From assembly GCA_008273105.1 (NCBI GenBank), contig GCA_008273105.1_4080.1: a stretch of DNA of 64,000 nucleotides. One strand, written 5' to 3'. This DNA comes from a phage. Shown one piece after another: positions 25,198 to 42,724 of the stretch (positions within the stretch are counted from its first letter, which is position 1; each line of letters starts with the position of its first letter). The position numbers and the translations under genes are program-made. Below the pieces are notes generated by a model that was given only the letters and a program-made list of their open reading frames with translations, made no database searches and had not been told where the DNA came from.

Positions 25198-25250
25198 GAT
25201 AAAACTCCTTAATTTAGGAGGGAGAACCATTTCCCCCTCTCTATGTAAAA

Positions 25251-25278
25251 CATTATACTTGATTCTAAGTACTATGCA
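25251..25278 (-). promoter_or_regulatory. sigma70-type early promoter (TTGCAT-N16-TATAAT)
   Basis: Minus strand: aaaaagtac TTGCAT ... TATAAT gttttacat, followed by GC hairpin and SD. Confidence 0.6.
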
Positions 25279-25286
25279 AGTACTTT

Positions 25287-25619
25287 TTACATTTTAATAC
25301 CTGGATTCAGGTAGCGGTGAGATCCATATTCTGGATCGGTTTCGGTCCAGTACTGTAAATCGATAGTACCTTTCGCGTTAATCTTGTCTACCAGCTTATT
25401 CATCTTAGTGTATACTACGTCAGCATCGATGCGTTTAAAGCCAGTAGCTTTAGTGAAGTAGTAGTGATTTGCTTCACTATCATTAAGGATATACCGAGCA
25501 CCGTTTGCAGTCTGTGCGATAATGATTGAGTATTCTACTTCCCGATCCAGACCGTCGATGAATACAGATGAAACATTGGTACGGATGAAAGCTTTAACGA
25601 TAGCGATTGAAGTACTCAT
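25287..25619 (-). CDS. hypothetical early protein
   Basis: ORF 110 aa; AGGAG SD; TTGACA-N17 promoter upstream. Confidence 0.55.
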   Translation of the reverse strand: MSTSIAIVKAFIRTNVSSVFIDGLDREVEYSIIIAQTANGARYILNDSEANHYYFTKATGFKRIDADVVYTKMNKLVDKINAKGTIDLQYWTETDPEYGSHRYLNPGIKM

Positions 25620-25825
25620 TTTGAATCTCCTAACTTTGTGGGCCGTCGCACCATTGCCGCCCTACGAGATACATTATTGCAGTACTGATATACTTTGTCA
25701 ATACTTTTTTTATTAATAGTTTTCACTTCACCAGCAGATAGTTACTCACCGTTATTAACTATATATTTTGGATACACTTATGCACCCTGTGGGCTAGTTT
25801 TTGTCTATGCGTATATAATAGCAAA

Positions 25826-25858
25826 GGAACTGACCGGAGTCAATCCCTTTTTTATTCT
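25826..25858 (-). terminator. intrinsic terminator hairpin (in repeated intergenic module)
   Basis: ggaactgaccggagtcaatccc hairpin with flanking A/T runs immediately downstream of gene 25861..26118; overlaps a TTGACT -35-like hexamer. Confidence 0.45.
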
Positions 25859-25860
25859 TT

Positions 25861-26118
25861 TTATGAAATATCTTCGATGTAGTCGGCCCATTTCATTTTT
25901 TCAGTACTGTCAATGGCTACCGGATTATTTGGATCAAACCATTCACCATTCCCGCAATACATACCCACGGCAACGGTTTTATAGCCATCCTGTGCAGTAC
26001 TCCACGACATAGCACGATAGATATGGCCTTTAACTGGTTGCAGTACTGGTAATGTTTTATGGTCTTCTACGTAGGCCATAGCTTGAGGATTTACCCGATA
26101 TTGTGTGAACTGTTCCAT
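25861..26118 (-). CDS. hypothetical early protein
   Basis: ORF 85 aa; AGGGGA SD. Confidence 0.55.
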   Translation of the reverse strand: MEQFTQYRVNPQAMAYVEDHKTLPVLQPVKGHIYRAMSWSTAQDGYKTVAVGMYCGNGEWFDPNNPVAIDSTEKMKWADYIEDIS

Positions 26119-26194
26119 TATGTTTCCCCTTGTAGTTAGTAAAGTTATTACATCAGTACTATCAAGCTATGTCAATAGTACTGAAATAAAACTT

Positions 26195-26419
26195 TTAGAT
26201 TAGATTATTGATGCCGTTGATGGTAGACTCGCTTTCTTCTTTCTCCCATTGGCGGTAGTACTTCCATGCTTCATGATATGTGGCGATTAGTTCATCTTTT
26301 TGATCCTGAGTACATGCCAGTACTGAATCACGATGAGCGGTGTTATAGATAGAATCGAATGATTTCTTCTCTTCTGCCAGGTTAGCTACTTCCCGCATTA
26401 GTTCATCAAAGTTAGCCAT
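26195..26419 (-). CDS. hypothetical early protein
   Basis: ORF 74 aa (MANFDEL...); AAGGAG SD; 5'-UTR hairpin gggggaggatatctccccc. Confidence 0.6.
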   Translation of the reverse strand: MANFDELMREVANLAEEKKSFDSIYNTAHRDSVLACTQDQKDELIATYHEAWKYYRQWEKEESESTINGINNLI

Positions 26420-26466
26420 TTTATTACTCCTTTTAGTGGGGGAGGATATCTCCCCCTATGCAAAAC

Positions 26467-26494
26467 ATTATACTTTGTTTTAGTTATTATGCAA
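26467..26494 (-). promoter_or_regulatory. sigma70-type early promoter (TTGCAT-N16-TATAAT)
   Basis: Minus strand TTGCAT aataactaaaacaaag TATAAT, then UTR hairpin 26438-26456. Confidence 0.6.
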
Positions 26495-26750
26495 GTACTT
26501 TTTTCATATAAAGATTATATTCTACACCGCCGTAACCTTCTACGATGATATGTTTTGCGTTATCACGTTTGCACATAGTGAAACCGTTGTTGATGTGTTC
26601 TGCATTTTCCAGGGCGACATCACCGATAGCGGCACATACGGCACTAATAACAGTATTCCGCAAAGTACTGGTATCATTAGCGGTCATAGTAGTTTGCAGT
26701 ACTACGTTGTCGTATACGTGTGCATTGATAGTGATTTCGATAGTGTTCAT
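26487..26750 (-). CDS. hypothetical early protein
   Basis: ORF 87 aa; AGGAG SD. Confidence 0.55.
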   Translation of the reverse strand: MNTIEITINAHVYDNVVLQTTMTANDTSTLRNTVISAVCAAIGDVALENAEHINNGFTMCKRDNAKHIIVEGYGGVEYNLYMKKVLA

Positions 26751-26836
26751 GGTGTATCTCCTGGACTGGCGGGAGAACTATTCCCCCGCTCTATGTAAAA
26801 CATTATACGTTAATCTAACTACAATGCAAGTACTTT

Positions 26837-27028
26837 TTAAATTTTATTTCCGATATAGTCCGGTCTATTCTTTTCGGTCATACGCTTTGCTAATGTTTGC
26901 ATATGGCTTATTGCGTTTAATGTGTCTTCCTCCAGGGATGAATCAACATAATCAGGATCATTCTTCACCTTGCAATGATTATGATAGCGTAGTACTGCCA
27001 GTACTTTTTTAACTTCTTCTACTGTCAT
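26837..27028 (-). CDS. hypothetical early protein
   Basis: ORF 63 aa; ATGA overlap with upstream gene (coupled). Confidence 0.5.
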   Translation of the reverse strand: MTVEEVKKVLAVLRYHNHCKVKNDPDYVDSSLEEDTLNAISHMQTLAKRMTEKNRPDYIGNKI

Positions 27029-27297
27029 AATAAGTACCCCACTTCGTTAGCTTTCAGGTTAGTATCAATCATCAGTGGATTTTTGTAGTTCACAAAACGA
27101 TTAGTTTTCTCGATAGCGAATCCCATATAATCCAGCTTACTAACAGTACATTCATTCTTAAAAACTTCTTTCGCTGCATCGATGGCTGATTGCATGGATA
27201 ACCGACCATCTAAATTAATGTTTCCAAATGATCCACCAGCAGAAGTAGGATTACCGTTCATATCTTTAATGATCATAGTAGCGGAGTAGCTGGACAT
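27025..27297 (-). CDS. hypothetical early protein
   Basis: ORF 90 aa; AGGAA SD; hairpin ggggagaactattctcccc in 5' UTR. Confidence 0.55.
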   Translation of the reverse strand: MSSYSATMIIKDMNGNPTSAGGSFGNINLDGRLSMQSAIDAAKEVFKNECTVSKLDYMGFAIEKTNRFVNYKNPLMIDTNLKANEVGYLL

Positions 27298-27381
27298 AAT
27301 TTTGTTTCCTTTTAGTATCGGGGAGAACTATTCTCCCCTTGATGTAAACTATTATACAGTACTGATATACTTTGTCAATAC

Positions 27382-27603
27382 TTAATTACGTTTAAAATGA
27401 TATGTGCCTTTATCATCCTGTACGCCCCATACTGATTTACCATCAACACCAGTGAAACCGGATTGTAATTCAATATGGAAACCATTATTATCAACTACAA
27501 AAACTTTTTTATTTTCATCCCGATAACATTGATATTCTGAATCAACATTAAAGGCCGCATCATTCAGAAGATTGGAAGCGTAAATGCAAGTCATTGTAGT
27601 CAT
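27382..27603 (-). CDS. hypothetical early protein
   Basis: Start set at MTTMTCIY after AAGGAA; upstream extension is translated UTR hairpin. Confidence 0.5.
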   Translation of the reverse strand: MTTMTCIYASNLLNDAAFNVDSEYQCYRDENKKVFVVDNNGFHIELQSGFTGVDGKSVWGVQDDKGTYHFKRN

Positions 27604-27657
27604 GATTTTATTCCTTATTCTTTGAGGGAGAACCATTTCCCCCTCTCGATATAAAAC

Positions 27658-27685
27658 ATTATACTTGATTCTAAGTACAATGCAA
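27658..27685 (-). promoter_or_regulatory. sigma70-type early promoter (TTGCAT-N16-TATAAT)
   Basis: Minus strand TTGCAT tgtacttagaatcaag TATAAT. Confidence 0.6.
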
Positions 27686-27779
27686 GTACTTTTTAAAAAA
27701 TAGTTTTCAGTACTGAATACTTATATAATAGATACATTTATGCACCCTGTGGGTCAGTGAGCTATCTCTCAATGAATAT

Positions 27780-27828
27780 ATAATAGCAAAGGGACTGACC
27801 GAAGTCAATCCCTTTTTTAATCTTTTTT
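27780..27828 (-). terminator. terminator hairpin overlapping a promoter-like TTGACT-N17-TATTAT element
   Basis: gggactgaccgaagtcaatccc hairpin with A/T flanks just downstream of kinase-like gene; same module at 25.8, 30.7 and 34.4 kb. Confidence 0.45.
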
Positions 27829-28411
27829 ATCGTGTTATAGTTACGGCTTTTACATCCCGCTTTTTATAGTACTGATTCCAGATATTGCGGGTTAAACCGT
27901 AATCAAGTACTTTAATAAGGCCGTTGCGATCCTGGCCGATATTCTGTTTTCTGATATCTCTTATCGTTAGTGTTGACAGTGTATCATCAACGTGTTGTAG
28001 TGCATCAGCAAAGCGGTGCTGGCGTTCAATTGCATTACGTTTAATATTGTACTTTAATTCGTTGCACGCGTTAACGTGCTTTACACTGCCTTTGCTTGCA
28101 GTACTCAACCGATCCATAACGATAAACATATTATCAGGATCGCTTAAATGCATATGCACTTTAGCAAAGTACTGTTTCAATTGAGGGCGGTCATAGTCTA
28201 AAAAATTCCATACCTTACATTCAGTTTCATTTTGTTCTACACCCGCATCACAATTGGCGACCTTAATCACTAACCGATCATTTAAAGCGAAAACTATACG
28301 GGAAGAACCTGCACCGATGATCTCCAAGCCAGCTAACCGACAAGCTGAAAGGATCTCTTTGTTGGTTTCCATTTCTGACAGTGTACGGATGAATTTAGTA
28401 TAATTACGCAT
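27827..28411 (-). CDS. protein kinase-like protein (truncated ePK-like fold)
   Basis: Gly-rich loop IGAGSSRIVF, VIK lysine, catalytic-loop-like IRDIRKQNIG, DYG (DFG-like) with typical spacing; start set at MRNYTKF after AAGGAGA. Confidence 0.6.
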   Translation of the reverse strand: MRNYTKFIRTLSEMETNKEILSACRLAGLEIIGAGSSRIVFALNDRLVIKVANCDAGVEQNETECKVWNFLDYDRPQLKQYFAKVHMHLSDPDNMFIVMDRLSTASKGSVKHVNACNELKYNIKRNAIERQHRFADALQHVDDTLSTLTIRDIRKQNIGQDRNGLIKVLDYGLTRNIWNQYYKKRDVKAVTITR

Positions 28412-28442
28412 TGCATGTTCTCCTTGAGTTAATGAAACTATA

Positions 28443-28685
28443 TTACAGTACTTTACTATCAATGGCAACTACTTTTTTAACATTAACGGCGTGGATCACT
28501 TCCTTCGTGTTTTTAGTACTGAATACTTTTGCCGTACCTTGTTCGACCGCAATACGATAGCGACCGTTAACGTCCACCATGTTGATAAAGTCCGGGGTAC
28601 TGAATGGAGTTACCCGGCATTTAAGAACGGTTAACAGTTCCACCAGCGTTGTAGTCTCTTTGATACGTTTTTCTAAAGTAATCAT
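28443..28685 (-). CDS. hypothetical early protein (paralog of 28743..28961)
   Basis: Start set at MITLEKRIK downstream of TTGACA-N17-TACTAT; six-frame extension MTVLKCFS is translated promoter. Confidence 0.5.
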   Translation of the reverse strand: MITLEKRIKETTTLVELLTVLKCRVTPFSTPDFINMVDVNGRYRIAVEQGTAKVFSTKNTKEVIHAVNVKKVVAIDSKVL

Positions 28686-28742
28686 TTTGTTTTCCCCGTG
28701 TTGGTATGCGTACATAGTACTAAAACATTTGAGTACTGTCAA

Positions 28743-28961
28743 TTAGATAATAGAATATTTCTTTAGTGATAATGCGTCTTCTGTCGGTTGATATTCTACA
28801 CCGTTCCCGTTATCTACCTTAGTGAGTAAACCTTTATCAATGAGTTTTTTGATGGTACGGTTTCCCTGTTGAAAACTGGTGAAGTGTGAATCATTACGAA
28901 AGGTATAACCGTGCTTCACTGCTTCATCAATAGTTTTCTTTTCGATTTTAGATAATTTCAT
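28743..28961 (-). CDS. hypothetical early protein, possible HTH DNA-binding
   Basis: Start set at MKLSKIEKK downstream of TTGACA-N17-TATTAT; HTH assignment is a guess from sequence appearance. Confidence 0.45.
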   Translation of the reverse strand: MKLSKIEKKTIDEAVKHGYTFRNDSHFTSFQQGNRTIKKLIDKGLLTKVDNGNGVEYQPTEDALSLKKYSII

Positions 28962-29017
28962 TTTGTTTCTCTCTCTGTGTTGGTATAGATACATAATACT
29001 AAAACATTTGAGTACTG

Positions 29018-29272
29018 TCAACGTGATATTAGTTTTATTTTTTTATTGTATTGTTGGTGTTCATATAGATTAATTTTTCCAGTACTCTCGATCACTATTC
29101 TATTGTTAGTGTCTACGTCGATTACACGTAGTTTCCCGTTGCTTAACTTCCTAGGCAATAGACTACCATTAATAAACTCATTAGCAAGCTGTACGGCCTT
29201 TGAGATGATTCTCTGTGGGGCTTTATAGTGTACCCGTAATACATTATCGTTTGATAGTTGAACCTTAATCAT
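29018..29272 (-). CDS. hypothetical early protein
   Basis: ORF 84 aa. Confidence 0.5.
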   Translation of the reverse strand: MIKVQLSNDNVLRVHYKAPQRIISKAVQLANEFINGSLLPRKLSNGKLRVIDVDTNNRIVIESTGKINLYEHQQYNKKIKLISR

Positions 29273-29285
29273 TTTGTTTATCCTA

Positions 29286-29311
29286 TAAAAAAGGCGGGAA
29301 CAGTTCCCGCC
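29286..29311 (-). terminator. intrinsic terminator
   Basis: Hairpin ggcgggaacagttcccgcc followed on minus strand by TTTTTTAT, just downstream of 29335..29730. Confidence 0.6.
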
Positions 29312-29334
29312 GTGTTGTTAGTACTGCAATGTTA

Positions 29335-29730
29335 TTAGATAACCTGGCGGCGTTTACTGTATACTGTTACACGGTTTCCTTTACGGTCATGACGGATCTC
29401 TTTCTGGTTACGAATCAGTTCACTTGGACGCTTAAGGTTTGCCAGGTGATCCGCGTGAGTCCATGCATTTGCGTTAACTGTAACTTCAATATCAGAACCT
29501 TCCAAGAAGTCATCTTGAGCGTTCAGTACTTCAGCCAGTTCTTGAGCTTTCTTCAGTTCTGCTTCAGTAAGTACAGGCTCAGGTGAATTCACAATATCAG
29601 AGATCTCTTTGAACTGTACCGCCCAGCGTTGTCCTTTCGGTGCATCTTTGCCCATGTCTTTAAATGTTTCACCTTCTTCACGAGCAACGATGCGAGCTTG
29701 TTCACGGGTAGCGAAGAATTTAGTAATCAT
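29335..29730 (-). CDS. hypothetical early protein (paralog of 41617..41880)
   Basis: Shares KFFATREQARI, TFKDMG, RWAV, DRKGNRVTVY with 41617 gene. Confidence 0.55.
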   Translation of the reverse strand: MITKFFATREQARIVAREEGETFKDMGKDAPKGQRWAVQFKEISDIVNSPEPVLTEAELKKAQELAEVLNAQDDFLEGSDIEVTVNANAWTHADHLANLKRPSELIRNQKEIRHDRKGNRVTVYSKRRQVI

Positions 29731-29829
29731 GGTGTACATCCTATTAGTTAAGTTAATTAGTACTACAAGTTAGAGTCTATTATAAAGTACTATCTGGGCA
29801 ATGTCAAATAGTACTTTAAATGGATTCTA

Positions 29830-30153
29830 TTACATGTCTTTCTTACGTTTTACATCGTAGTAACGAACTGTAATTTCTTTGTTGATCTCTTCCTCGATGC
29901 GGTGAATAACTTTTTCTTTCGGGTTGAAACCTATTACAGTTTCTTTAATGATCTCCAAGCCCGTGTATTCGCCTTGTGTACCGTAACCGTAAGTAAAGGT
30001 TTCATGTCCCAGGTCTTCCCAGCGGTCACCAATCAATGCAGACACGTAGCATGAGTGGTAAGTATTGCCGTGGCTATCAGTCCACCGATTAACTTTAATG
30101 TCAAAGGAAGTTACAATTTTCATTTCTACTTTCTGGGTAAGGATCATAGCCAT
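29830..30153 (-). CDS. hypothetical early protein (paralog of 35992..36315)
   Basis: Shares RWTDSxGNTYHSC, FTYGY and C-terminal VKRKKD. Confidence 0.55.
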   Translation of the reverse strand: MAMILTQKVEMKIVTSFDIKVNRWTDSHGNTYHSCYVSALIGDRWEDLGHETFTYGYGTQGEYTGLEIIKETVIGFNPKEKVIHRIEEEINKEITVRYYDVKRKKDM

Positions 30154-30242
30154 TTTAATTTCTCTCTTTGTTAGGTGGGGAACTATTCCCCACTTGATGT
30201 AAAATATTATACAGTACTAAAAACTATTGTCAAACTATTTTA

Positions 30243-30443
30243 TCAAATTGTTTCCCATTTCATGTTACCCGCTTTACGCTGTGAAACAGGAATAAACATG
30301 TTATTAATGTTACTAATATAACCGACCTGTAAGTCACGCTGTGAACCATACGCCCGACTTGCTGCATTTTTAGCACCGCGTTCTGATTTATAAACGCCGC
30401 TGGATACTGTAAAGCCTACTACACCGAAAGTAAAATGTTTCAT
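30243..30443 (-). CDS. hypothetical early protein
   Basis: ORF 66 aa; TTGACA-N16-TATAAT and AGAGGAA SD upstream; long duplicated leader further upstream. Confidence 0.55.
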   Translation of the reverse strand: MKHFTFGVVGFTVSSGVYKSERGAKNAASRAYGSQRDLQVGYISNINNMFIPVSQRKAGNMKWETI

Positions 30444-30493
30444 TTTGTATTCCTCTTTGTGGTTGATGTAAGTATTATACTCGTTTAATTTCT

Positions 30494-30600
30494 ATTGTCA
30501 AACTATTTTATCAGGGGAGGTTTTCGTATGTCTTACTCCTGGACTACTTAACGGGGAGTTACTTGTTTCGTTCCCCGTCCTGATGTAAAACATTATACGC
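30494..30600 (-). repeat. about 107-bp structured leader repeat (copy 1)
   Basis: Near-identical to 40926-41035; contains hairpin acggggag...ctccccgt and the early promoter -10 region. Confidence 0.7.
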
Positions 30601-30766
30601 TTATCGTGATACTTTGCAAGTACTTTTTAAAAATAGTTTTCAGTACTATCAAATACTAGCCGCCAGCATATAATAGATACATTTATGCACCCTGTGGGCT
30701 GATTTGTTTCTATGCGTATATAATAGCAAAGGGACTGACCGGAGTCAATCCCTTTTTTAATTCTTT

Positions 30767-30916
30767 TTAAACTTGTTTTGGGTTGCGATATGTGATAGCG
30801 TTCGGGTACATTTGTTTAATGTTATTCCATGCCTGGTTAACATTGTAACCACTTGAGCGAATCAGTTGGTTACTACCGACACCTTGAAACACTACTTCGA
30901 ATAAGAATTCTTTCAT
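30767..30916 (-). CDS. hypothetical small protein (49 aa, below ORF-track cutoff)
   Basis: Manual translation MKEFLFEVVFQGVGSNQLIR...; AGGTGA SD; ATGA overlap with upstream gene. Confidence 0.4.
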   Translation of the reverse strand: MKEFLFEVVFQGVGSNQLIRSSGYNVNQAWNNIKQMYPNAITYRNPKQV

Positions 30917-31086
30917 GCTTTCACCTCGCGATCTGCTTTACCTTTACGCCACGACATTACTAATTGTTCGCGTTGCCATAAGTCGAGTGATACAAAAAGT
31001 TTTGCGGTATCACTTTTAGGATACTCGCCATTAGTACCTAACCGATAAAACAGATCTTTCAGTACTGATAATTCTACTTGAATCAT
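30913..31086 (-). CDS. hypothetical small protein (57 aa, below ORF-track cutoff)
   Basis: Manual translation MIQVELSVLKDLFYRLGTNGEYPK...; AGGAG SD; ATGA overlaps both ends. Confidence 0.45.
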   Translation of the reverse strand: MIQVELSVLKDLFYRLGTNGEYPKSDTAKLFVSLDLWQREQLVMSWRKGKADREVKA

Positions 31087-31175
31087 TTTATTACTCCTGA
31101 TTGCGTTAATACTTCTACTATTGCATGAATGATCATAAGTACAGCTAAAACAATAATCATCGGATTCATTTGCAT
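31083..31175 (-). CDS. hypothetical small hydrophobic peptide (30 aa)
   Basis: MQMNPMIIVLAVLMIIHAIVEVLTQSGVIK; AAGGAG SD 8 nt upstream; first gene of a 3-gene mini-operon. Confidence 0.35.
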   Translation of the reverse strand: MQMNPMIIVLAVLMIIHAIVEVLTQSGVIK

Positions 31176-31192
31176 AAGCTGTACTCCTTATA

Positions 31193-31405
31193 TTAATCTT
31201 TCAGCCAATGATCTTGAATGAATTTTTCACAGAATCCCTGTTTCATGGATTCTAACAGGCGTTCGCGGTGAGCGGCGGCATATTGCTCAGTACTATGCGT
31301 TACGCCAGGCTGATAACGTGATACCCCATCCGGTCCGATGTATTGTACATCCCACGGTTTTTCGTTAGTATCAGACCATTTACGAACGATTAGTTGACCT
31401 TGCAT
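31193..31405 (-). CDS. hypothetical early protein
   Basis: ORF 70 aa; AGGAAA SD; UTR hairpin. Confidence 0.55.
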   Translation of the reverse strand: MQGQLIVRKWSDTNEKPWDVQYIGPDGVSRYQPGVTHSTEQYAAAHRERLLESMKQGFCEKFIQDHWLKD

Positions 31406-31489
31406 TTTTCTTTCCTCTTAGTGGGGAGAATCATTTCTCCCCTTCATGTAACTTATTATACAGTACTATAATCTATTGTCAAATACTTT

Positions 31490-31678
31490 TTAAAGTTTAT
31501 GAATCAATTCTTTATCTAAGCGATAGCGTACATTATTAATGGTAACAGCATTATTTTTAATGCTACGCTGTACAGGTCCACCAGCAATAACAAACGTTGC
31601 TTTATTACCCCGAACAATGATAGCACTTCCAGGATTACCGAAATCATCTTGTACTAAAATACTTGATAAGTTTTCCAT
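31490..31678 (-). CDS. hypothetical early protein
   Basis: ORF 62 aa; AGGAAA SD; UTR hairpin aggggaagatgtttcccct. Confidence 0.55.
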   Translation of the reverse strand: MENLSSILVQDDFGNPGSAIIVRGNKATFVIAGGPVQRSIKNNAVTINNVRYRLDKELIHKL

Positions 31679-31756
31679 TTTTATTTCCTCTTAGTAGGGG
31701 AAGATGTTTCCCCTTGATGTAAGTACTATAACAGTACTTAAAACTAAATGCAAGTA

Positions 31757-32113
31757 CTATGATAAAATCATGATAGGATATTCACTATCGATCAGTACCT
31801 CGAATCCGAACCCTTCGTACCATTCTTTAAGATTAAAGGCGTTATCTTCTCCCGTATCGCATTCTAAGATGATACAATCTGAATCATCGGCGGCATCGAT
31901 AAAGGCATTCATTAATTCGTTACCTTCACCATTGCCCCGACTATCAGGATCAACATAAAGAGAATCAATAAACGCTACACGGTCATAATCAAGATCCGGT
32001 GCAATGATTCCACGTTTAACAAACCAGTACTGCAACTGTGCTACTTTGCCCTGTACTTGATAGCCAGTGATCTCGCCATTGTCAGTAGTACGCGTGATAT
32101 GTTGTATTCCCAT
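31757..32113 (-). CDS. GNAT-like acetyltransferase (tentative)
   Basis: VAFIDSLYVDPDSRGNGEGNELMNAF resembles GNAT motif A (R-x-x-G-x-G); short for a GNAT. Confidence 0.35.
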   Translation of the reverse strand: MGIQHITRTTDNGEITGYQVQGKVAQLQYWFVKRGIIAPDLDYDRVAFIDSLYVDPDSRGNGEGNELMNAFIDAADDSDCIILECDTGEDNAFNLKEWYEGFGFEVLIDSEYPIMILS

Positions 32114-35991: not shown

Positions 35992-36315
35992 TTAAAGATC
36001 TTTTTTACGTTTTACATCCTGTACAGTACAATGCAACGGGATAGACAAATCATTACACAAACGAGTAAGGGAGGTTTCAACAGTATCAAGCCCGTCTACT
36101 GATTCCTTTAAGAGATCAAACGCCGTTTGTTGATATGCATCTTCATAGCCATAAGTAAATGATTCAACCGCCAGATCATTCAAACCGTTATCCAGTTCAA
36201 CGCTTACATGACAAGAATGATAAGTATTGCCATATGAATCAGTCCAACGTTTACCGTCAACATTGATTGCATGGATTGCAGCCAGGGAAACGGTGTTGAT
36301 GATAGTTTTAGCCAT
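35992..36315 (-). CDS. hypothetical early protein (paralog of 29830..30153)
   Basis: Shares RWTDSYGNTYHSC, FTYGY, VKRKKD; AAGGAA SD. Confidence 0.55.
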   Translation of the reverse strand: MAKTIINTVSLAAIHAINVDGKRWTDSYGNTYHSCHVSVELDNGLNDLAVESFTYGYEDAYQQTAFDLLKESVDGLDTVETSLTRLCNDLSIPLHCTVQDVKRKKDL

Positions 36316-36406
36316 TTTAGTATTCCTTAAATTAATATGTGTCGTCTTGATAAAATCTATTATGCCAGTACTATCAAACTATGTCAATAGTACTGTGATA
36401 ATATTT

Positions 36407-36619
36407 TTACTTACTTTCTTTCGCTGCTTTATATGTTGCCACTGCCATAACCACATCAGCACGAACAAAGTTTTTAACCGTGTCACTGTAATAATTGATC
36501 GCATCATCTATATCTGCGAACGTCCGATACATACCGCACCAAGATACTTTATAACCTTCTTTCACTTCTGCCAGTTTAACGATAGTCTTGTTAACTTTGA
36601 TTTTAGTAATGATAGCCAT
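36407..36619 (-). CDS. hypothetical early protein
   Basis: ORF 70 aa; AGGAAA SD; UTR hairpin. Confidence 0.55.
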   Translation of the reverse strand: MAIITKIKVNKTIVKLAEVKEGYKVSWCGMYRTFADIDDAINYYSDTVKNFVRADVVMAVATYKAAKESK

Positions 36620-36705
36620 TTTAGTTTCCTTGTAGTGGGGAGAATCATTTCTCCCCTTGATGTAATGTATTATACTTTATTCGATTTACTTTGCAAGTAC
36701 TTTTT

Positions 36706-36933
36706 TTAATTTAATTCATCCAGGCAAAGGATACGCTCAACGCCCAAATCAGTTAAACTAATCGACGGCACTTGATAGGTTTCAATGTATGCTACACTTG
36801 CCCACTGACCGAACTCATTAACGGCCCAGGTATTCATTGCATTTTGCAATTCCGCACCTGCCTTGTTAGTAATGACTGCAACTACTTGTTCGTTGCCAGT
36901 AGTACCAGATACGCGAGTAATGATAATAGCCAT
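36706..36933 (-). CDS. hypothetical early protein
   Basis: Start set at MAIIITRV after AAGGAA; six-frame extension MFYIERG is the translated -10 region. Confidence 0.5.
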   Translation of the reverse strand: MAIIITRVSGTTGNEQVVAVITNKAGAELQNAMNTWAVNEFGQWASVAYIETYQVPSISLTDLGVERILCLDELN

Positions 36934-37170
36934 TGTTTTGATTCCTTTGATTTGGAAGGAGAACCGTTTCCCCCTCTCGATGTAAAACATTATACGCTAA
37001 TCTCTTAATCGTGCAAGTACTTTTTATTACTTTTTGCAAAATACTTTAAACGCTCTCAATCGCATTCTAACGACCTTAACGCCACCAGCTAGGGCGATGT
37101 ATCAGATAATCAGTTTAATGCGTTAGAATCGATTCTAGGCGGTGCTGGTGGACTGGAATACTACAGACAC

Positions 37171-37197
37171 AAAAAAGCCCACTGTTTAAGGTGGGCT
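37171..37197 (-). terminator. intrinsic terminator
   Basis: Hairpin agcccacc ttaaacag tgggct followed on minus strand by TTTTTT; identical copy at 37906-37932. Confidence 0.65.
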
Positions 37198-37218
37198 AGT
37201 GATTCAGTACTTTAATTG

Positions 37219-37701
37219 TTATGCTTCAACTTTGCGATGAGCTTCGATCCATTCCTCGCGAGTCATACCGCTTTCTTTGATAGCGTCCAGTACTACCGCA
37301 ATGCAGTTACCGCGTACAGGAATCATATGTTCTTCCCCGTTATCAAGTACTACAGTAACACGTTCTTGAATCCATTTTTTAGGTTTAGATTCTGGCTTAT
37401 CTTCACCATACTTAACCGCCAGGGCTTTATGTGCCATTTCTACAACTACTTCCAGATCCAATCCAGCCACCGCCGCCTGGATACTTTCGATTGTTGCTTG
37501 CAGTTCGGCTTCACGGGCTTTTTTCTGTTCTTCCAGTTCTGCTACCTTTTTGGCTTGCAGTTCTTTAGCTTCACTGTACGCAATGTTAAAATTGTTGCGT
37601 ACTGCTTTCATGGTATCGTTATCCAGGTCAGCCAACAATTCAGCAGCAATAACAGTATCGTTTGAAATCAGTGCTTTCAGGAATGATTTTACATTAGCCA
37701 T
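37219..37701 (-). CDS. H-NS-like nucleoid-associated protein (tentative)
   Basis: Helical charged N-terminal region (AKELQAKKVAELEEQKKAREAELQ); C-terminus VVLDNGEEH...PVRGNC...AIKESGMTREEWI loosely resembles, from memory, the H-NS C-terminal DNA-binding region; start at MANVKSF after GAGGA. Confidence 0.35.
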   Translation of the reverse strand: MANVKSFLKALISNDTVIAAELLADLDNDTMKAVRNNFNIAYSEAKELQAKKVAELEEQKKAREAELQATIESIQAAVAGLDLEVVVEMAHKALAVKYGEDKPESKPKKWIQERVTVVLDNGEEHMIPVRGNCIAVVLDAIKESGMTREEWIEAHRKVEA

Positions 37702-37905
37702 TTTATAAATCCTCAATTAAAGTTTAGTTTACGTTTATTAGTGTATCAAAGTTTTATCGACGTGTCCAGTTTTTCGTTCGACTTACTGGCGGTCTACTTA
37801 GTGCTCCCCGTCTTGATGTAATACATTCTACGCCTTTTTGTGGTAATGTCAACTACTATTTTAAAACTATTTTTAAAGTATGCAGTACTACGATAATACA
37901 AAAAC

Positions 37906-37932
37906 AAAAAAGCCCACTGTTTAAGGTGGGCT
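37906..37932 (-). terminator. intrinsic terminator (second copy)
   Basis: Same hairpin agcccacc...tgggct + T-run downstream of 37950..38249. Confidence 0.65.
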
Positions 37933-37949
37933 AGTGATTCAGTACTATA

Positions 37950-38249
37950 TTATAAACAGTTAATTACTCCGGTGTGCGTTACTTTCTCAGTATCCATAAC
38001 CGTGACCGATCCACGCTTAGTACTTACATCGTAATAAATTGTCGTGCTACCTTTTTCGTCTTCTTCATGGAACGGGCCGCTTTTAAATGCTTCTGGCTGG
38101 ATCTCTAAATCCTTTAAAACAATCTCGCCAGTACTTTCATCTGTCATCGCAACAGTGCACTGAATGAATTTTTCACTACTTACATCTAACGACGCATTAA
38201 CAGCGAAAGAGGAAACAGATAAAGCCAGGGCGATGATTGCAATTTTCAT
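37950..38249 (-). CDS. secreted/periplasmic protein with N-terminal signal peptide
   Basis: MKIAIIALALSVSSFAVNA-SLD: n-region, hydrophobic core and AxA-like cleavage site; AAGGA SD. Confidence 0.55.
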   Translation of the reverse strand: MKIAIIALALSVSSFAVNASLDVSSEKFIQCTVAMTDESTGEIVLKDLEIQPEAFKSGPFHEEDEKGSTTIYYDVSTKRGSVTVMDTEKVTHTGVINCL

Positions 38250-38333
38250 TTGATTATCCTTAGTTACCAGGGGGAACCGCTCCCCCGTGCGATGTAAAAT
38301 ATTGTACAGTACTAAAAACTAATTGCAAGTACT

Positions 38334-38570
38334 TTATGATTTTTTATAAAACATTTCGGCAGTAATATTTTTACCCGTTGGTTGTACTTTATCCAGAATT
38401 TTTTGATGCCCTGGCCGTCCAAATGAATATGATCCGTAAACCGTAAACCAGTAGTTACCCTCAGTGTTTACATGTACAGCACAATAGGGAACGCCCCGCG
38501 ATTCATCACCAATAAAGTGTGATACCGTTCCCGTTACATTAGCAGACGTTGATTTGATTTGTTCAAGCAT
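38334..38570 (-). CDS. hypothetical early protein
   Basis: ORF 78 aa; AAGGAA SD; UTR hairpin gggggaaccgctccccc. Confidence 0.55.
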   Translation of the reverse strand: MLEQIKSTSANVTGTVSHFIGDESRGVPYCAVHVNTEGNYWFTVYGSYSFGRPGHQKILDKVQPTGKNITAEMFYKKS

Positions 38571-38679
38571 TTTCTTATTCCTTAGTTACCAGGGGGAACC
38601 GCTCCCCCTATGCAAAACATTATACGCGTTTAAAAACTAATAGCAAGTATTTTAATAAAAAGTATTTGAAAAATAATTG

Positions 38680-38708
38680 TTGACAACTGCATCCAGTACT
38701 GGCATAAT
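38680..38708 (+). promoter_or_regulatory. plus-strand sigma70-type promoter (TTGACA-N17-CATAAT), antisense to early genes
   Basis: TTGACA actgcatccagtactgg CATAAT, followed about 28 nt later by CCCACAGGGTGCA at 38737-38749. Confidence 0.45.
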
Positions 38709-38788
38709 TACTACATAAAGACGATACAGTCACTAACCCACAGGGTGCATAGATCCGTCTATTAAATGATTCAGTACTTAACAATAAA

Positions 38789-38806
38789 GGGGATCAATCG
38801 ATCCCC
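38789..38806 (-). terminator. hairpin terminator downstream of 38813..39034
   Basis: ggggatcaatcgatcccc followed on minus strand by TTTATTGTT. Confidence 0.45.
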
Positions 38807-38812
38807 TATGTA

Positions 38813-39034
38813 TTACTTAGTAAGGTATAAACAGAAGTCACCTTTATTTGCTACGCCGCCAGTGTAACGCGATGAATAGTTAGAAACGTCCTGGACTTCT
38901 GCTATTACCAGTGTATCATCATTCAATTCGTCGCAGAAGCAAACGGCTGGATCTTTTACGCCGATCTTGTCGGCATGTTCCCGCATAGATTTAACCAGTG
39001 CTTCCAGTTGAGAAAGAGTAGTGATATTAGCCAT
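38813..39034 (-). CDS. hypothetical early protein
   Basis: Start set at MANITTL after GAGGA; upstream extension is translated hairpin. Confidence 0.5.
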   Translation of the reverse strand: MANITTLSQLEALVKSMREHADKIGVKDPAVCFCDELNDDTLVIAEVQDVSNYSSRYTGGVANKGDFCLYLTK

Positions 39035-39118
39035 TGTATTTTCCTCATTACCAGGGAGAACCATTTCTCCCCTCTATGTAAACTATTATACAGTACTGAA
39101 AACTAATTGCAAGTACTT

Positions 39119-39307
39119 TTAATTAAATTCCATAAAATCATTCTCAACGTGCACAACAATTTGATTGTTTTTAAAGTCCGCAGCGAACTCGATGCAATCA
39201 TAAACCGCTTTTTGTGTTACAATGCTATGAGTACCAATCGGATTAATAGGGGATTGAATTGTTTCAATCTCGTTCCCTTGCTCATTAACAATTAAAATAT
39301 TAAACAT
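39119..39307 (-). CDS. hypothetical early protein
   Basis: ORF 62 aa; AGGAG SD. Confidence 0.5.
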   Translation of the reverse strand: MFNILIVNEQGNEIETIQSPINPIGTHSIVTQKAVYDCIEFAADFKNNQIVVHVENDFMEFN

Positions 39308-39363
39308 CGCTGTTACTCCTGGGTAGTGTTAACTCGATATAAAGTATTATACGCCTTTATTGC

Positions 39364-39567
39364 TTAGTGTCCAGTACTTTTTAAAACATATTCATAAACA
39401 CTACGCACATCATTGATCATCGCCTGGCGGTTAGCAGGTAACGCACCAGGATCGCCACTATCCCAGGCATTGATAAAACTCCCCAAATCATGAAAGATTT
39501 TATTCTGTAAGCCGATTAACTGCAATTCTTTTTCTTCAAGCTCTTTGATACGGTCAATTAAAAGACT
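39364..39567 (-). CDS. hypothetical early protein
   Basis: Start set at MSLLIDRIK after GAGGA. Confidence 0.45.
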   Translation of the reverse strand, partial: SLLIDRIKELEEKELQLIGLQNKIFHDLGSFINAWDSGDPGALPANRQAMINDVRSVYEYVLKSTGH

Positions 39568-39587
39568 CATTAGATAATCCTCAGTAC

Positions 39588-39875
39588 TTAATTGTAAGAT
39601 CCGCAACGGTTACAATAGTGCCCGTCTTCCTCGTCATCGTCAACGAATTGACCGACGAAATTATCTACTTTCTCTTTGAGATTCTGATAATTGTTTTCAA
39701 CTTCCTTTAGACGTTCCTGGTAGTATTCCAGGGCTTGCACATACGCCGCCTCAGCCGTTTTCGCTCTTAAGGCTAAATTCATGCCACGCGTTTCATCGTA
39801 CATCCAAAAGCCATCGGTGCACTCACTGATTGACAATGATTTGGTTAACACTTTATAGTCAATTACTTTGCTCAT
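39588..39875 (-). CDS. hypothetical early protein with C-terminal Cys pair
   Basis: Start set at MSKVIDYKVL after GAGGA; C-terminus HYCNRCGSYN. Confidence 0.45.
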   Translation of the reverse strand: MSKVIDYKVLTKSLSISECTDGFWMYDETRGMNLALRAKTAEAAYVQALEYYQERLKEVENNYQNLKEKVDNFVGQFVDDDEEDGHYCNRCGSYN

Positions 39876-39931
39876 TAGATAATCCTCAGTAAAGGCGGGA
39901 ACCACACCCGCCATTGATTCAGTACTGAATG

Positions 39932-40171
39932 TTACATTCCAACCATTGCAGCACGGATCGCCGTAGTGCTATACTTGAATCCGTCCGGTGTTGTAGTAGT
40001 ACCGTTGGCTTTTAATCTGCGGTACATACATTGGGCCGCAATATCTTTAGTTTTACATTGTGCGATGCAACTTTGAGCAAGCCGATATAATGACTCACCG
40101 TTATTAATCCACAATGAAACATTCCAATGAGTTTTGTTTTTGTGTCCGTTGTAAGTTTTAGTACTAGCCAT
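39932..40171 (-). CDS. hypothetical early protein (paralog of 41972..42211)
   Basis: Shares GHKNKTHWNVSLWINN.ESLYRLAQ and TPDGFKYSTTAIRAAMVGM. Confidence 0.55.
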   Translation of the reverse strand: MASTKTYNGHKNKTHWNVSLWINNGESLYRLAQSCIAQCKTKDIAAQCMYRRLKANGTTTTPDGFKYSTTAIRAAMVGM

Positions 40172-40261
40172 TTTTAAATCCTCGTTTGAGCGGGGAACCA
40201 TTCCCCGCCTCGATATAAAGTATTATACGCTTTTAAACTTAGTTTGCAAGTACTTTTTAAA

Positions 40262-40873
40262 TTAATATGCGATTGATTCTACTACGTCATCAATAACATT
40301 GAATTGATATTCGTTACCCTCAATCAGTGCCGTAATGTTTTCAGTAGTGAATTGATCCTCATATGCATTCTCTAAATCACGGTACAACTTGCGGGATAAT
40401 TCACGAATAGTTTCAGTGAGTAGTTCCTCAAGCTCATTAACTAACGTTTCTTGTTTTGCGGTTAAATCAGTGTAAGCCGATTCAATGTACCCGCTTACAG
40501 TATTCTCATGTGAGTACAAAGAATGAGAACGCTTTACACTCATCGCCAAATCATCTTCATTCAGCAGGTGACGGATTGAGCGATACTTAGTTAATGCTCT
40601 TACCTTGCGTAAAAACTTCACTGCGTCAACGTGGTCAGTACTGATTGATGCACCGTCACCCTGGGACCAAAAACCACTGAATTGTATTTCAGCGTCATTA
40701 ATGCCATATTCCGGTAGTACTGTTTCTTTATAGTATTCAATTTCACTTTCAGAAAAATAATTGTCGTTTGAGTTTTTTTCACGTTCCCGAACCAGTTCGA
40801 TAGCCGCCGCTTGTTGTTCTGCGTTCAGTTCAGAAAAAGCCATAACGAAAGTAGTAGTAGTGATAGTTTTCAT
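40262..40873 (-). CDS. acidic hypothetical protein
   Basis: ORF 203 aa, many D/E residues, motif FSGFWSQGDGASI; GAGGG SD. Confidence 0.55.
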   Translation of the reverse strand: MKTITTTTFVMAFSELNAEQQAAAIELVREREKNSNDNYFSESEIEYYKETVLPEYGINDAEIQFSGFWSQGDGASISTDHVDAVKFLRKVRALTKYRSIRHLLNEDDLAMSVKRSHSLYSHENTVSGYIESAYTDLTAKQETLVNELEELLTETIRELSRKLYRDLENAYEDQFTTENITALIEGNEYQFNVIDDVVESIAY

Positions 40874-40925
40874 TTTGTAACCCTCATTCAGTAGTTTATG
40901 TAAGTATTATACGCTTTTAAAAACA

Positions 40926-41035
40926 TTTGTCAAACTATTTTATCAGGGGAGTTTTTCGTGTGCCTTACTCCTGGGCTACTTAACGGGGAGTTACTTATTT
41001 CGTTCCCCGTCCTGATGTAAAACATTATACGCCTT
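40926..41035 (-). repeat. about 107-bp structured leader repeat (copy 2)
   Basis: Near-identical to 30494-30600. Confidence 0.7.
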
Positions 41036-41095
41036 TAAACATAGTTTGCAAGTACTTTTTAAAAATAGTTTTCAGTACTGAATATTAAAAAAGTA

Positions 41096-41124
41096 TTGAC
41101 AGCATTATCAAGTACTGGCATAAT
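41096..41124 (+). promoter_or_regulatory. plus-strand sigma70-type promoter (TTGACA-N17-CATAAT)
   Basis: Followed by CCCACCGGGTGCA at 41146-41158; convergent with an inverted copy at 41203-41216. Confidence 0.45.
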
Positions 41125-41298
41125 ATACCCCATGACAACAGCTAACCCACCGGGTGCACAATTGTAACTATACTAAACTAATTTTTCTATAGATACACTC
41201 CCGCACCCTATGGGCTACGGCTTATCTGCCAATGAATACATTATGCCAGTACTGACAAAATAAGTCAATACCGGCAATTGTAAAGATTTGTAAACTGC

Positions 41299-41529
41299 TT
41301 ATACTGCAATCGCGTCCAGGCTATAATAATAATAAGTGCCGTATTGGTGTACTTTATTACCTTTTATTTCAGTACTGAATGAATCCGAACGGTTTGCATA
41401 TGATGTTAATTTAAAGTACTTTGATTTGCTGATACGTTGCCATACACCGCAGATCCGCTGTAAGTAAGTAGTTTTATTAGTGGTAGTATCTTTTACGGTT
41501 TTAACTTCAGTCATATACATATTAGTCAT
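41299..41529 (-). CDS. hypothetical early protein
   Basis: ORF 76 aa. Confidence 0.5.
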   Translation of the reverse strand: MTNMYMTEVKTVKDTTTNKTTYLQRICGVWQRISKSKYFKLTSYANRSDSFSTEIKGNKVHQYGTYYYYSLDAIAV

Positions 41530-41616
41530 TTTTATTACTCCAGGTTATAGGCGGGAAGTGTTCCCGCTCTCGATGTAAAACATTATACGCCATTAAACAT
41601 AGTTTGCAAGTACTTT

Positions 41617-41880
41617 TTATTCAAGTACTGCAATCTTTTTAGTACGGTACACGGTCACGCGGTTGCCCTTTCGGTCGAGCTTTATTTCTACCACTCGACG
41701 CGATACACTATCGGGACTTTTTAAGGCCGCTAACCAGTACTGTAATGATCTGGCGGTACTACGCTTTACAATGGCCCAACGTTTACCACGTTCCGATTGT
41801 ACGCCCATATCTTTAAACGTTGCCCCGGCGTGGCGTGCGGCGATCCGAGCTTGTTCACGCGTCGCAAAATACTTAATATT
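41617..41880 (-). CDS. hypothetical early protein (paralog of 29335..29730)
   Basis: Start set at MNIKYFATREQ; shared motifs with 29335 gene. Confidence 0.5.
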   Translation of the reverse strand, partial: NIKYFATREQARIAARHAGATFKDMGVQSERGKRWAIVKRSTARSLQYWLAALKSPDSVSRRVVEIKLDRKGNRVTVYRTKKIAVLE

Positions 41881-41971
41881 CATGCTGTTGCCCTTATCGT
41901 TGGTGTATGAATAAAACACTATTATAAAGTACTATCCCCGTGCAATAGTACTTTAAATAAATTCTATTCTA

Positions 41972-42211
41972 TTACATTCCAACCATTGCCGCACGGATCG
42001 CAGTAGTGCTATATTTGAATCCGTCCGGTGTTTTATCTTGTCCAGTCTGTTCTAAAAATAACATCATATGACGGGCCGCATCATTGCGATTAGTGCTATC
42101 GTTAATAAAGTCCTGGGCCAACCGGTATAATGATTCATCGTTATTAATCCAAAGGCTTACATTCCAATGAGTTTTGTTTTTGTGACCTAAGAACATTTTT
42201 GATTTAGCCAT
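41972..42211 (-). CDS. hypothetical early protein (paralog of 39932..40171)
   Basis: ORF 79 aa; GAGGA SD. Confidence 0.55.
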   Translation of the reverse strand: MAKSKMFLGHKNKTHWNVSLWINNDESLYRLAQDFINDSTNRNDAARHMMLFLEQTGQDKTPDGFKYSTTAIRAAMVGM

Positions 42212-42306
42212 TTTTTTTTAATCCTCTTATATAGTGGGGAACTATTCCCCACCTGATGTAAAACATTATACGCCATTAAACATAGTTTGCAAGTACTTTA
42301 TTAAAC

Positions 42307-42669
42307 TTATTTGTAAATTTTACCACTGTCAGCCCATACCAGGAAACGAGGCATATTATCCCATGCATCTTGTTTTAAGTTTAAGCCGTGCAATTCCTCA
42401 GTTGTTGCCATCCCTGGTACTGGCTTACTACACACCGCGAAATTTTCGCCCATATACTGATAAACCATCGTCAAATCATTTGAGATCATTATATGGATCA
42501 TTGAATCCAGCATCAAAGTAGCGGCGTATTGTTCACGCTTAAGCGGCAACATTGCAATAAGTTCCCGATAAGCTGCAATGTGAATTTTTACAGTTTCAGC
42601 CGGAAGACCTTTCATCTCATCGCGGAAGTTTACCAGGTTAAGCATGATTTTATTGATTTGAGTCGCCAT
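42307..42669 (-). CDS. hypothetical early protein
   Basis: Start set at MATQINKIM; six-frame extension MFYIESG is the translated -10 region. Confidence 0.5.
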   Translation of the reverse strand: MATQINKIMLNLVNFRDEMKGLPAETVKIHIAAYRELIAMLPLKREQYAATLMLDSMIHIMISNDLTMVYQYMGENFAVCSKPVPGMATTEELHGLNLKQDAWDNMPRFLVWADSGKIYK

Positions 42670-42724
42670 CGTTTTAATCTCTCTTAATGTGTAGCGGGAA
42701 GTGTTCCCGCTCTCGATGTAAAAC

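Follow-up and report, generated by a model that had tools for sequence, protein, structure and literature searches.

Introduction

Stem-loops at the 5′ terminus of messenger RNAs (mRNAs) reportedly act as stabilizers, as described by Emory, Bouvet, Arnold, Bricker and Belasco for ompA and papA, and the hairpin of the T7 φ10 transcript is likewise known as an mRNA stabilizer. The ompA, papA, recA and vacA mRNAs are stabilized by stem-loops in their 5′ untranslated regions (PMC7509114; cited in PMC3997798). A second known arrangement, in which a hairpin accompanies an early promoter, is the promoter-early stem-loop (PeSL) cassette of the T4-type phages RB49/phi1, PST and nt-1 (PMC2839356, PMC4122927), in which five subclasses place the stem-loop ahead of the −35 and −10 elements, between them, across one of them or just before the start (PMC2839356). 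Here, we analyse a 64,000-nucleotide stretch of phage DNA (GenBank assembly GCA_008273105.1, contig GCA_008273105.1_4080.1; the whole stretch is called the window), in which more than 20 early mRNA leaders carry a G-run/C-run hairpin between a σ70-type promoter and the Shine–Dalgarno (SD) sequence.

The units in the window resemble PeSL cassettes in that each is a repeat of about 100 bp with an AT-rich upstream region, a near-consensus σ70 promoter, a G-run/C-run stem-loop and an SD sequence, and in that they stand ahead of small orphan early genes, in a plastic region, where they bound insertions, deletions and replacements. Both the composite PeSL motif (promoter, stable stem-loop and SD ahead of small orphan genes) and the location at indel boundaries (window versus the related phage G17, judged by eye from a BLAST table) are found here. 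Unlike the PeSL stem-loops, however, all 21 short-loop stems of the window lie past the predicted +1, inside the leader; the PeSL stem has been read as terminating or attenuating transcription that arrives from upstream, whereas the window stems lack a U-tract in a sequence test and show covariation specific to the mRNA strand, and the window and its related phages are unrelated to T4-type phages. The window stems also resemble ompA hp1 and the papA stabilizers, as short stable hairpins near the mRNA 5′ end and upstream of an accessible ribosome-binding site (RBS), but the classical elements leave fewer than about 2–3 unpaired 5′ nucleotides (PMC8833179), whereas about five are predicted for the window leaders. 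The leader hairpin appears to be undescribed; it is a variant both of the promoter/stem-loop cassette and of the 5′ leader hairpin, each of which is known.

Results

A hairpin at a fixed position in early leaders

When the whole window was scanned for hairpins on its two strands, those of the GGGG(A)GAA/TTC(T)CCCC type were confined to 25218–42711, with 21 short-loop copies and two long-loop variants (41010–40983 and 30578–30551). The stems are of 7–9 bp, with loops of 3–5 nt and folding energies of −8 to −15 kcal/mol, and the loops vary in both sequence and length (UAG, AUGA, AUGG, CAC, CGG, ACAUC, AAAC and others). As the initial annotation of this DNA had proposed, the position between the −10 element and the SD is fixed: in all 21 short-loop copies, on the minus strand, the hairpin starts 8–14 nt (mode 12) downstream of the −10 element and its 3′ end lies 17–23 nt ahead of the ATG. 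In 19 of the 21 leaders the minimum-energy fold leaves the SD free of pairing.

Counted by promoter, with a stem of at least 7 bp and at least four G–C pairs required and with dinucleotide shuffles of the same downstream sequences as the null, the hairpin is present at 21 of the 39 strong minus-strand promoters in the 25–43 kb region, compared with a shuffled expectation of 0.16 ± 0.38 (maximum 2). The earlier description of the hairpin as occurring in more than 20 early leaders therefore stands, whereas its extension to 'most early genes' does not, as the hairpin is found at about half of the promoters of a block of about 50 small genes. The four example sequences quoted in that description are all present; they had been read off the plus strand, the genes and promoters being on the minus strand. 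The array and its hairpins are as follows.

25218..42752, minus strand: array of promoter–hairpin–RBS cassettes ahead of small early genes (promoter and hairpin scans, G17 alignment)
42693..42711, minus strand: leader hairpin AGCGGGAA-cac-TTCCCGCT; −10 at 42730–42725, gene 42307–42669
42233..42253, minus strand: leader hairpin GGTGGGGAA-tag-TTCCCCACT; gene 41972–42211 (DUF7249)
41551..41567, minus strand: leader hairpin GCGGGAA-cac-TTCCCGC; gene 41299–41529
40983..41010, minus strand: long-loop variant ACGGGGA-(14 nt)-TCCCCGT, part of a structured leader of about 75 nt between tandem promoters (−35 hexamers 41051 and 40933)
40189..40209, minus strand: leader hairpin GGCGGGGAA-tgg-TTCCCCGCT; gene 39932–40171 (DUF7249)
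39053..39072, minus strand: leader hairpin GGGGAGAA-atgg-TTCTCCCT
38590..38610, minus strand: leader hairpin TAGGGGGAG-cgg-TTCCCCCTG; a G and a C lost together in the G17 and JP4 orthologues
38270..38286, minus strand: leader hairpin GGGGGAG-cgg-TTCCCCC
36955..36976, minus strand: leader hairpin GAGGGGGAA-acgg-TTCTCCTTC, two G·U pairs on the mRNA strand; hairpin absent from the orthologous genes of G17 and 121Q
36637..36656, minus strand: leader hairpin GGGGAGAA-atga-TTCTCCCC
35053..35072, minus strand: leader hairpin GGGGAGAA-atga-TTCTCCCC
34826..34843, minus strand: leader hairpin GGGGGAA-atgg-TTCTCCC, one G·U pair
34238..34256, minus strand: leader hairpin AGGGGAAA-cgg-TTTCCCCT
33805..33823, minus strand: leader hairpin GGGGAGAA-tag-TTCTCCCC
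31696..31714, minus strand: leader hairpin AGGGGAA-acatc-TTCCCCT; −10 is TATAGT
31423..31442, minus strand: leader hairpin GGGGAGAA-atga-TTCTCCCC
30551..30578, minus strand: second long-loop variant ACGGGGA-(14 nt)-TCCCCGT; matching tandem-promoter unit in the rV5-like phage A73
30175..30193, minus strand: leader hairpin GTGGGGAA-tag-TTCCCCAC; G17 and JP4 orthologues have GAGGGGAA/TTCCCCTC, a U–A to A–U swap
27624..27645, minus strand: leader hairpin GAGGGGGAA-atgg-TTCTCCCTC, one G·U pair
27320..27338, minus strand: leader hairpin GGGGAGAA-tag-TTCTCCCC; cassette on both flanks of a G17 gene insertion
26769..26789, minus strand: leader hairpin GCGGGGGAA-tag-TTCTCCCGC, one G·U pair
26438..26456, minus strand: leader hairpin GGGGGAG-atatc-CTCCCCC
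25218..25239, minus strand: leader hairpin GAGGGGGAA-atgg-TTCTCCCTC, one G·U pair; gene 24796–25197

The pairing is under selection as RNA

Across 11 window copies, in a gapless and unfitted alignment, 91.9% of the cells are paired and double changes occur in six of nine pairs; the covariation score of 0.455 compares with 0.191 ± 0.040 for shuffled alignments (0/500) and with at most 0.16 for slid-partner controls. This analysis bears out the compensatory changes that had been noticed in the stems at the outset. A larger set, in which 104 hits from the window, G17, 121Q, JP4, A73 and nepoznato reduce to 67 distinct sequences, gave similar values: 91.6% paired, double changes in six of nine pairs and a score of 0.397 versus 0.173 when shuffled, with slid controls at or below 0.145. 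A first alignment (MAFFT anchored on the −10 element, RNAalifold) had gapped the 5′ arm, with only three pairs recovered, and was replaced. The hairpin-only covariance model, built from a loop-anchored gapless seed, finds no further matches in the 64-kb window and scores the gene strand about 20 bits above the opposite strand.

The mismatches distinguish the two strands. Among the inner eight pairs of the 67 distinct copies, G·U occurs 26 times and A·C seven times (binomial p = 0.0013, for sequences that are phylogenetically non-independent), and at one stem pair the copies have A–U 16 times, G·U 13 times, G–C 37 times and A·C never. From this excess of G·U over A·C it follows that the structure is selected as RNA on the gene strand, unlike a DNA palindrome. 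The predicted hairpin energies of the sense and antisense strands in the window alone (−11.7 versus −10.7 kcal/mol) do not differ significantly (Wilcoxon p = 0.10), and the count of G·U versus A·C over the distinct copies is a better test of the strand. The hairpin is, with little room for doubt, a selected RNA structure.

Orthologous leaders of 121Q, G17 and JP4 provide individual examples in which the sequence is altered and the pairing is kept, namely GTGGGGAA/TTCCCCAC versus GAGGGGAA/TTCCCCTC and AGCGGGAA/TTCCCGCT versus GACGGGGG/CTCCCGTT, together with a paired one-base deletion, TAGGGGGAG/TTCCCCCTG versus TAGGGGAG/TTCCCCTG. The strongest comparison for selected pairing comes from Klebsiella phage RaK2, which belongs to a different genus. 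By position-based scanning, stems were detected at eight of 44 RaK2 promoters, at the same offset of 8–14 nt past the −10 element, where 0.01 would be expected, and the distance from stem end to ATG, read off the printed leaders, is about 20–22 nt. At least six different stems occur within this one genome (GGGGATACA/TGTATCCCT, GGGAATGAA/TTCATTCCC, GGAGATTCCA/TGGAATCTCC, AGGAGGT/ACCTCCT, GGGAGAGA/TCTCTCCC and GGGGCAA/TTGCCCC), all unrelated to the Asteriusvirus stems; the window covariance model found nothing convincing in the RaK2 locus (best score 13 bits).

A portable cassette in a terminal-repeat gene block

Megablast of the 29–35 kb part of the window matched 85 phage records, nearly all of which are Asteriusvirus jumbo coliphages (121Q, PBECO4, G17, JP4 and others), and Escherichia phage vB_Eco_slurp01 is 100% identical to the window over one 95-nt cassette, the only cassette queried; on these matches the window is assigned to an Asteriusvirus jumbo coliphage. 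Position 1 of the G17 record aligns with window position 24366, the hairpin block beginning at about position 850 in G17, and direct terminal repeats of about 20.7–21 kb are found in relatives (PMC11895373, PMC13070987). Because of this alignment and the length of these repeats, the terminal repeat is taken to be filled, over the interval 25.2–42.7 kb, by a block of some 50 small early genes on the minus strand. Its minus strand carries a dense run of σ70-type TTGACA/TTGCAA-N16-TATAAT promoters. In the annotation of G17 the block consists of 49 coding sequences over 17.4 kb, all 'hypothetical', with the true terminators marked and the leader stems unannotated. In a Pfam scan of 20 hairpin-led proteins the sole passes at the curated cutoff were two matches to DUF7249; matches to SRAP and SAM_SMF were weak and sub-threshold.

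The hairpin-bearing promoters of window 24366–44200 all aim toward lower coordinates. By the G17 coordinates only, those in the right-hand copy of the terminal repeat would direct transcription inward from the physical end of the genome, in a manner reminiscent of the leading-end early regions of T7 and T5.

The promoter–hairpin unit is also found in rV5-like Vequintavirinae (A73, W70, FV3 and LTH01) and in Phapecoctavirus (nepoznato and muut), with 75–94% identity over 50–90 nt and with the same geometry as in the window; an exact-pattern scan of IMG/VR returned 121Q itself as the sole match. The window and G17 differ by insertions, deletions and replacements of single genes, which break at cassettes (27285–27383, 30241/30459, 31490, 31738/32160, 36429/36617 and 39902/40184, all by eye from the BLAST table), and the cassette at window 27285–27383 is duplicated in G17, where it matches both flanks of an extra gene. 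The hairpin is one module of a portable promoter–hairpin–Shine–Dalgarno cassette that is common to other large coliphages and that bounds single-gene changes.

Comparison with other early-region hairpins

The transcripts of T7 offer two likenesses: φ10 RNA starts with an 8-bp GGGAGACC/GGUUUCCC hairpin, and A1 RNA starts with AUCGAGAGGG, as do several window leaders, and forms a GGGA...UCCC hairpin from +2 in the predicted fold. These are single loci, however, in contrast to the array of more than 20 in the window, and the φ10 hairpin is exactly 5′-terminal and is made by T7 RNA polymerase. The λ nut boxB and HK022 put elements are also RNA hairpins that follow soon after an early promoter, but they depend on a conserved loop or bulge and are present once in each operon, whereas the window loops vary and the element stands ahead of nearly every second gene; a boxB/nut-type antitermination hairpin was rejected on the differences in loop sequence and length among copies. 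In T5, on the minus strand at 3695–3722, between A2 and T5.005 in the first-step-transfer repeat, there is a GTGGGGAA/TTCCCCAC hairpin, the stem of which is identical to that at window 30175–30193, with no promoter ahead of it and no T-run after it.

Intrinsic terminators and REP-like intercistronic hairpins have GC-rich stems of similar size, and a leader stem sequence is itself reused as a terminator in the block. The leader tails, by contrast, are A-rich rather than U-rich, and the leader stems have a fixed relation to the promoter.

29293..29311, minus strand: ordinary intrinsic terminator with a leader-type stem, GGCGGGAA-ctg-TTCCCGCC, followed by TTTTTT; no promoter upstream
39889..39917, minus strand: weak terminator-type use of a related stem, GGCGGG-tgtggtt-CCCGCC, followed by TTTAC; no promoter upstream

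A terminator function of the leader stems was rejected: none of the 21 was called by a terminator scan, and their 8-nt tails contain on average 1.6 T and 4.0 A, with no U-tract. Real T-run terminators occur every few genes within the same block. A switch that masks the SD was likewise rejected, as without the 5′ arm the pairing of the 3′ arm with the SD averages −2.5 kcal/mol, compared with −3.2 kcal/mol for shuffled arms. Rfam matched no family to any leader hairpin, and the 24–45 kb region gave three hits at chance level (E values of 0.15–0.74).

The two long-loop variants lie in a setting of their own. Tandem minus-strand promoters about 118 nt apart occur at window 41051–40880 and 30619–30450 and also at 11880–12060 in the rV5-like A73 locus, and in the predicted fold of the leader of about 75 nt (−22 kcal/mol) the 5′ end pairs with CCCCUGAU. 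Homology of the long-loop leader to the T7 A1–A2 spacer was considered and set aside as too weak (local score 26, versus 17.5 ± 2.6 with a maximum of 28 when shuffled).

Discussion

Predicted start and a possible function of the hairpin

Several window leaders read TATAAT-gttttac-ATCGAGAGGG, and the annotated start of T7 A1 reads GATACT-tacagcc-ATCGAGAGGG. Because both geometry and sequence match this annotated start, transcription probably begins at the A located 8 nt past the −10 element. The immediate-early mRNAs, made by the host σ70 RNA polymerase, carry the hairpin within a predicted leader of about 45 nt, where it most likely acts in cis and post-transcriptionally. The leader would be compact, consisting of a 5-nt tail, the stem and an RBS starting 5–10 nt downstream, so that the footprint of the ribosome would abut the stem; with a ribosome on the RBS hardly any single-stranded AU-rich RNA would be left exposed, and the hairpin would shield the RBS from context-dependent pairing whatever the upstream gene or read-through transcript. 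The outcome would be that early messages live longer and are translated more reliably. Of the roles suggested in the initial annotation, a 5′ stabilizer is still the most plausible, with the difficulty of the unpaired tail discussed below. Stabilization or insulation of the leader in cis is ranked first as the main function and is held tentatively, as a distinct possibility rather than an expectation; the explanation as a whole, a selected leader hairpin that serves as a cis-acting stabilizer and insulator, comes close to an even balance of belief without reaching it.

Several observations weigh against this explanation. The predicted unpaired 5′ tail ahead of the stem has a mode of 5 nt (range 1–7, with the start taken from T7 A1). 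At least two unpaired 5′ nucleotides suffice for RppH and RNase E, which prefer at least three (PMC8833179), and scanning RNase E reportedly bypasses simple stem-loops with ease (PMC9943677). Because a predicted tail of about 5 nt suffices for both enzymes, and in view of this reported bypass, classical 5′-end protection would be a poor fit for this hairpin. The hairpin is also dispensable, as 18 of the 39 strong promoters in the block are without it, and clean losses or swaps occur at orthologous genes, with losses in 121Q and G17. Within Asteriusvirus the upper stem, G-G/A-G-A-A paired with U-U-C-Y-C, is conserved in sequence and polarity, and its five pairs never flip, the 5′ arm being purine and the 3′ arm pyrimidine. 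Such fixed polarity suggests that more than pairing constrains the sequence, for instance the initial transcribed sequence or a binding factor, and pure stabilization leaves this unexplained. In addition, leader hairpins are unmentioned in the text-searched genome and transcriptome papers on RaK2, CBB, rV5, Sharanji, fEgEco12 and PA5oct.

Alternative explanations

The purines in the 5′ arm of the upper stem are better explained by a role in transcription, or by a factor acting in trans, than by stabilization. In the former case RNA polymerase would be helped to escape from very strong consensus promoters, kept from backtracking close to the promoter or made to pause there, either by the hairpin as it forms on the nascent RNA or by the purine-rich initial transcribed sequence that makes up its 5′ arm. 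The tightly fixed distance to the −10 element, the invariably purine-rich 5′ arm with its five unflipped upper pairs and the opening of several leaders with ATCGAGAGGG, like the annotated T7 A1 transcript, are consistent with this. We consider it unlikely, however, as the −35 and −10 hexamers of the hairpin-less promoters in the block are just as good and their initial sequence is not G-rich, no shared pause-like signal was seen by eye 10–12 nt past the stems in the 21 tails, and the equally tight spacing between stem and ATG is not predicted by a purely transcriptional role. Alternatively, the hairpin may be a handle: an RNA-binding protein or a nuclease, encoded by phage or host, would recognize it and thereby single out the immediate-early regulon for timed shut-off, for protection or for control of translation. 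The element is carried by more than 20 transcripts that belong to a single temporal class, and the conserved sequence and polarity of the upper stem within Asteriusvirus argue in the same direction. Against such a handle, the loop is unconserved in sequence and length, the RaK2 stems are quite dissimilar among themselves in one genome and the Pfam matches of the hairpin-led genes are uninformative. The initial annotation had named, as one candidate role, a target for an enzyme like T4 RegB, given the GGAG in the stems, and this idea is not supported, since the motif is present in only nine of the 21 5′ arms and is base-paired inside the stem, and the RaK2 stems differ again. A tblastn search with T4 RegB returned 1138 records, and 12 rows sampled across the ranking were sequences of 8–175 kb, mostly T4-type, with no jumbo phage among them. 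A trans-acting factor is accordingly given a low probability. Also improbable is a reading in which an immediate-early regulon of several lineages of large coliphages (Asteriusvirus and Alcyoneusvirus and, by transfer, Vequintavirinae and Phapecoctavirus) has the hairpin as its defining cis-signal, with a mechanism that is undescribed for σ70 transcripts. For example, early messages might be protected or switched off by a structure-specific factor sensing the purine/pyrimidine polarity of the upper stem, or a nascent-RNA element might act on RNA polymerase at very strong promoters.

If the cassette were of the PeSL type in the strict sense, its stem-loop would attenuate or terminate upstream read-through, the unit of about 100 bp would be mainly a recombination substrate and the leader fold would be incidental. 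The window/G17 indels and replacements bounded by cassettes, including the duplicated cassette around an inserted gene, and the spread of the cassette to unrelated phage subfamilies agree with this, and PeSL stem-loops terminated transcription in a reporter assay (PMC2839356). Nevertheless, we regard it as quite unlikely: no U-tract follows any of the 21 stems, none of them passes the terminator scan and true terminators lie elsewhere in the block; the stem is downstream of the predicted start of its own cassette, the transcript of which would itself be attenuated; sequence identity is required for recombination, yet the copies conserve their pairing in spite of sequence change and show strand-specific G·U; and intergenic breakpoints are expected anyway, gene-disrupting recombinants being lost. 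An inverted repeat at +6 to +25 occupies a classical operator position, and a DNA palindrome might be bound by a dimeric repressor of the early promoters or might extrude as a cruciform. The half-sites, however, change jointly with no consensus kept, the spacer ranges from 3 to 5 nt and can reach 14 nt, RaK2 alone has no fewer than six different stems, and the strand-asymmetric ratio of G·U to A·C (26:7) is not expected for recognition of double-stranded DNA or for a cruciform that folds on two strands; we rejected this reading as scarcely credible. Finally, the paralogy of the copies and the losses of the hairpin speak for a repeat that hitch-hikes with duplicated promoter cassettes and has no function, but the compensatory double changes, the G·U intermediates, the paired indel and the independent stems at the same position in RaK2 make such an absence of function very improbable.

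Further repeated elements in the window

A second repeated unit has its own strong promoter, TTGAC[AT]-N17-[CT]AT[AT]AT, often TG-extended, and after it a hairpin of 3–4 bp, apparently co-varying, with a purine-rich loop (GACGagaaCGTC, GTCgagaaaGAC, GAGagatagCTC and GGCagataaGCC), followed by TA[AG]CCCAC-AGGGTGC[AG] and then TGTATCTAT. Its motif positions in the window are 38737, 41146, 43084 and 43301 on the plus strand and 41214, 34364, 32702, 30698, 27753 and 25793 on the minus strand; the minus-strand copies lie directly behind terminators, with the −35 element within the terminator stem. The unit is conserved between Asteriusvirus and RaK2, where it is located at 1915, 8504, 9937, 13871, 16512 and 18390 (plus strand) and at 11802 and 4734 (minus strand) of the RaK2 locus. 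It has no Rfam match, and either a small RNA or a structured RNA close to the promoter may be encoded there.

The palindrome AGTACT occurs 259 times in the window, compared with about 22 expected from base composition and with 77 for the next commonest palindromic hexamer; it is densest at 24000–44500, is often extended to tCAGTACTGa and often lies within promoter spacers and intergenic DNA. On the plus strand at 50685–61257, near-identical terminators of the form GCCAGTAC-N3-GTACTGGC, then TTTCTTATTTG, recur, and the genes of this terminator-rich region correspond to the repeated RCC1-like genes annotated in 121Q. At 43400–43700, between the last early promoter and the plus-strand block, there are clustered short direct repeats (ccgtttagccgtct[ag]...) together with further odd repeats; the inner edge of the terminal repeat is probably close by.

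Conclusion

In conclusion, this study reports an array of leader hairpins that are selected as RNA and are part of promoter–hairpin–RBS cassettes in an Asteriusvirus early-gene block. For annotation, the gain is that leader stems, which could pass for terminators, can be named where they are now unannotated in G17. A single genome supplies over 20 stem variants of natural origin, and together with the orthologous swaps and losses in relatives these form a ready mutational series, which is suited to the question of how a hairpin near the 5′ end with few unpaired nucleotides affects decay dependent on RNase E and RppH, and translation. Should the hairpin prove to make early messages more stable or more reliable, the cassettes would be a natural plug-and-play expression module of promoter, structured leader and RBS, by which these phages would move and express small host-takeover or anti-defence genes, and this would help to account for the fast turnover of the gene sets in the terminal repeats of jumbo phages.

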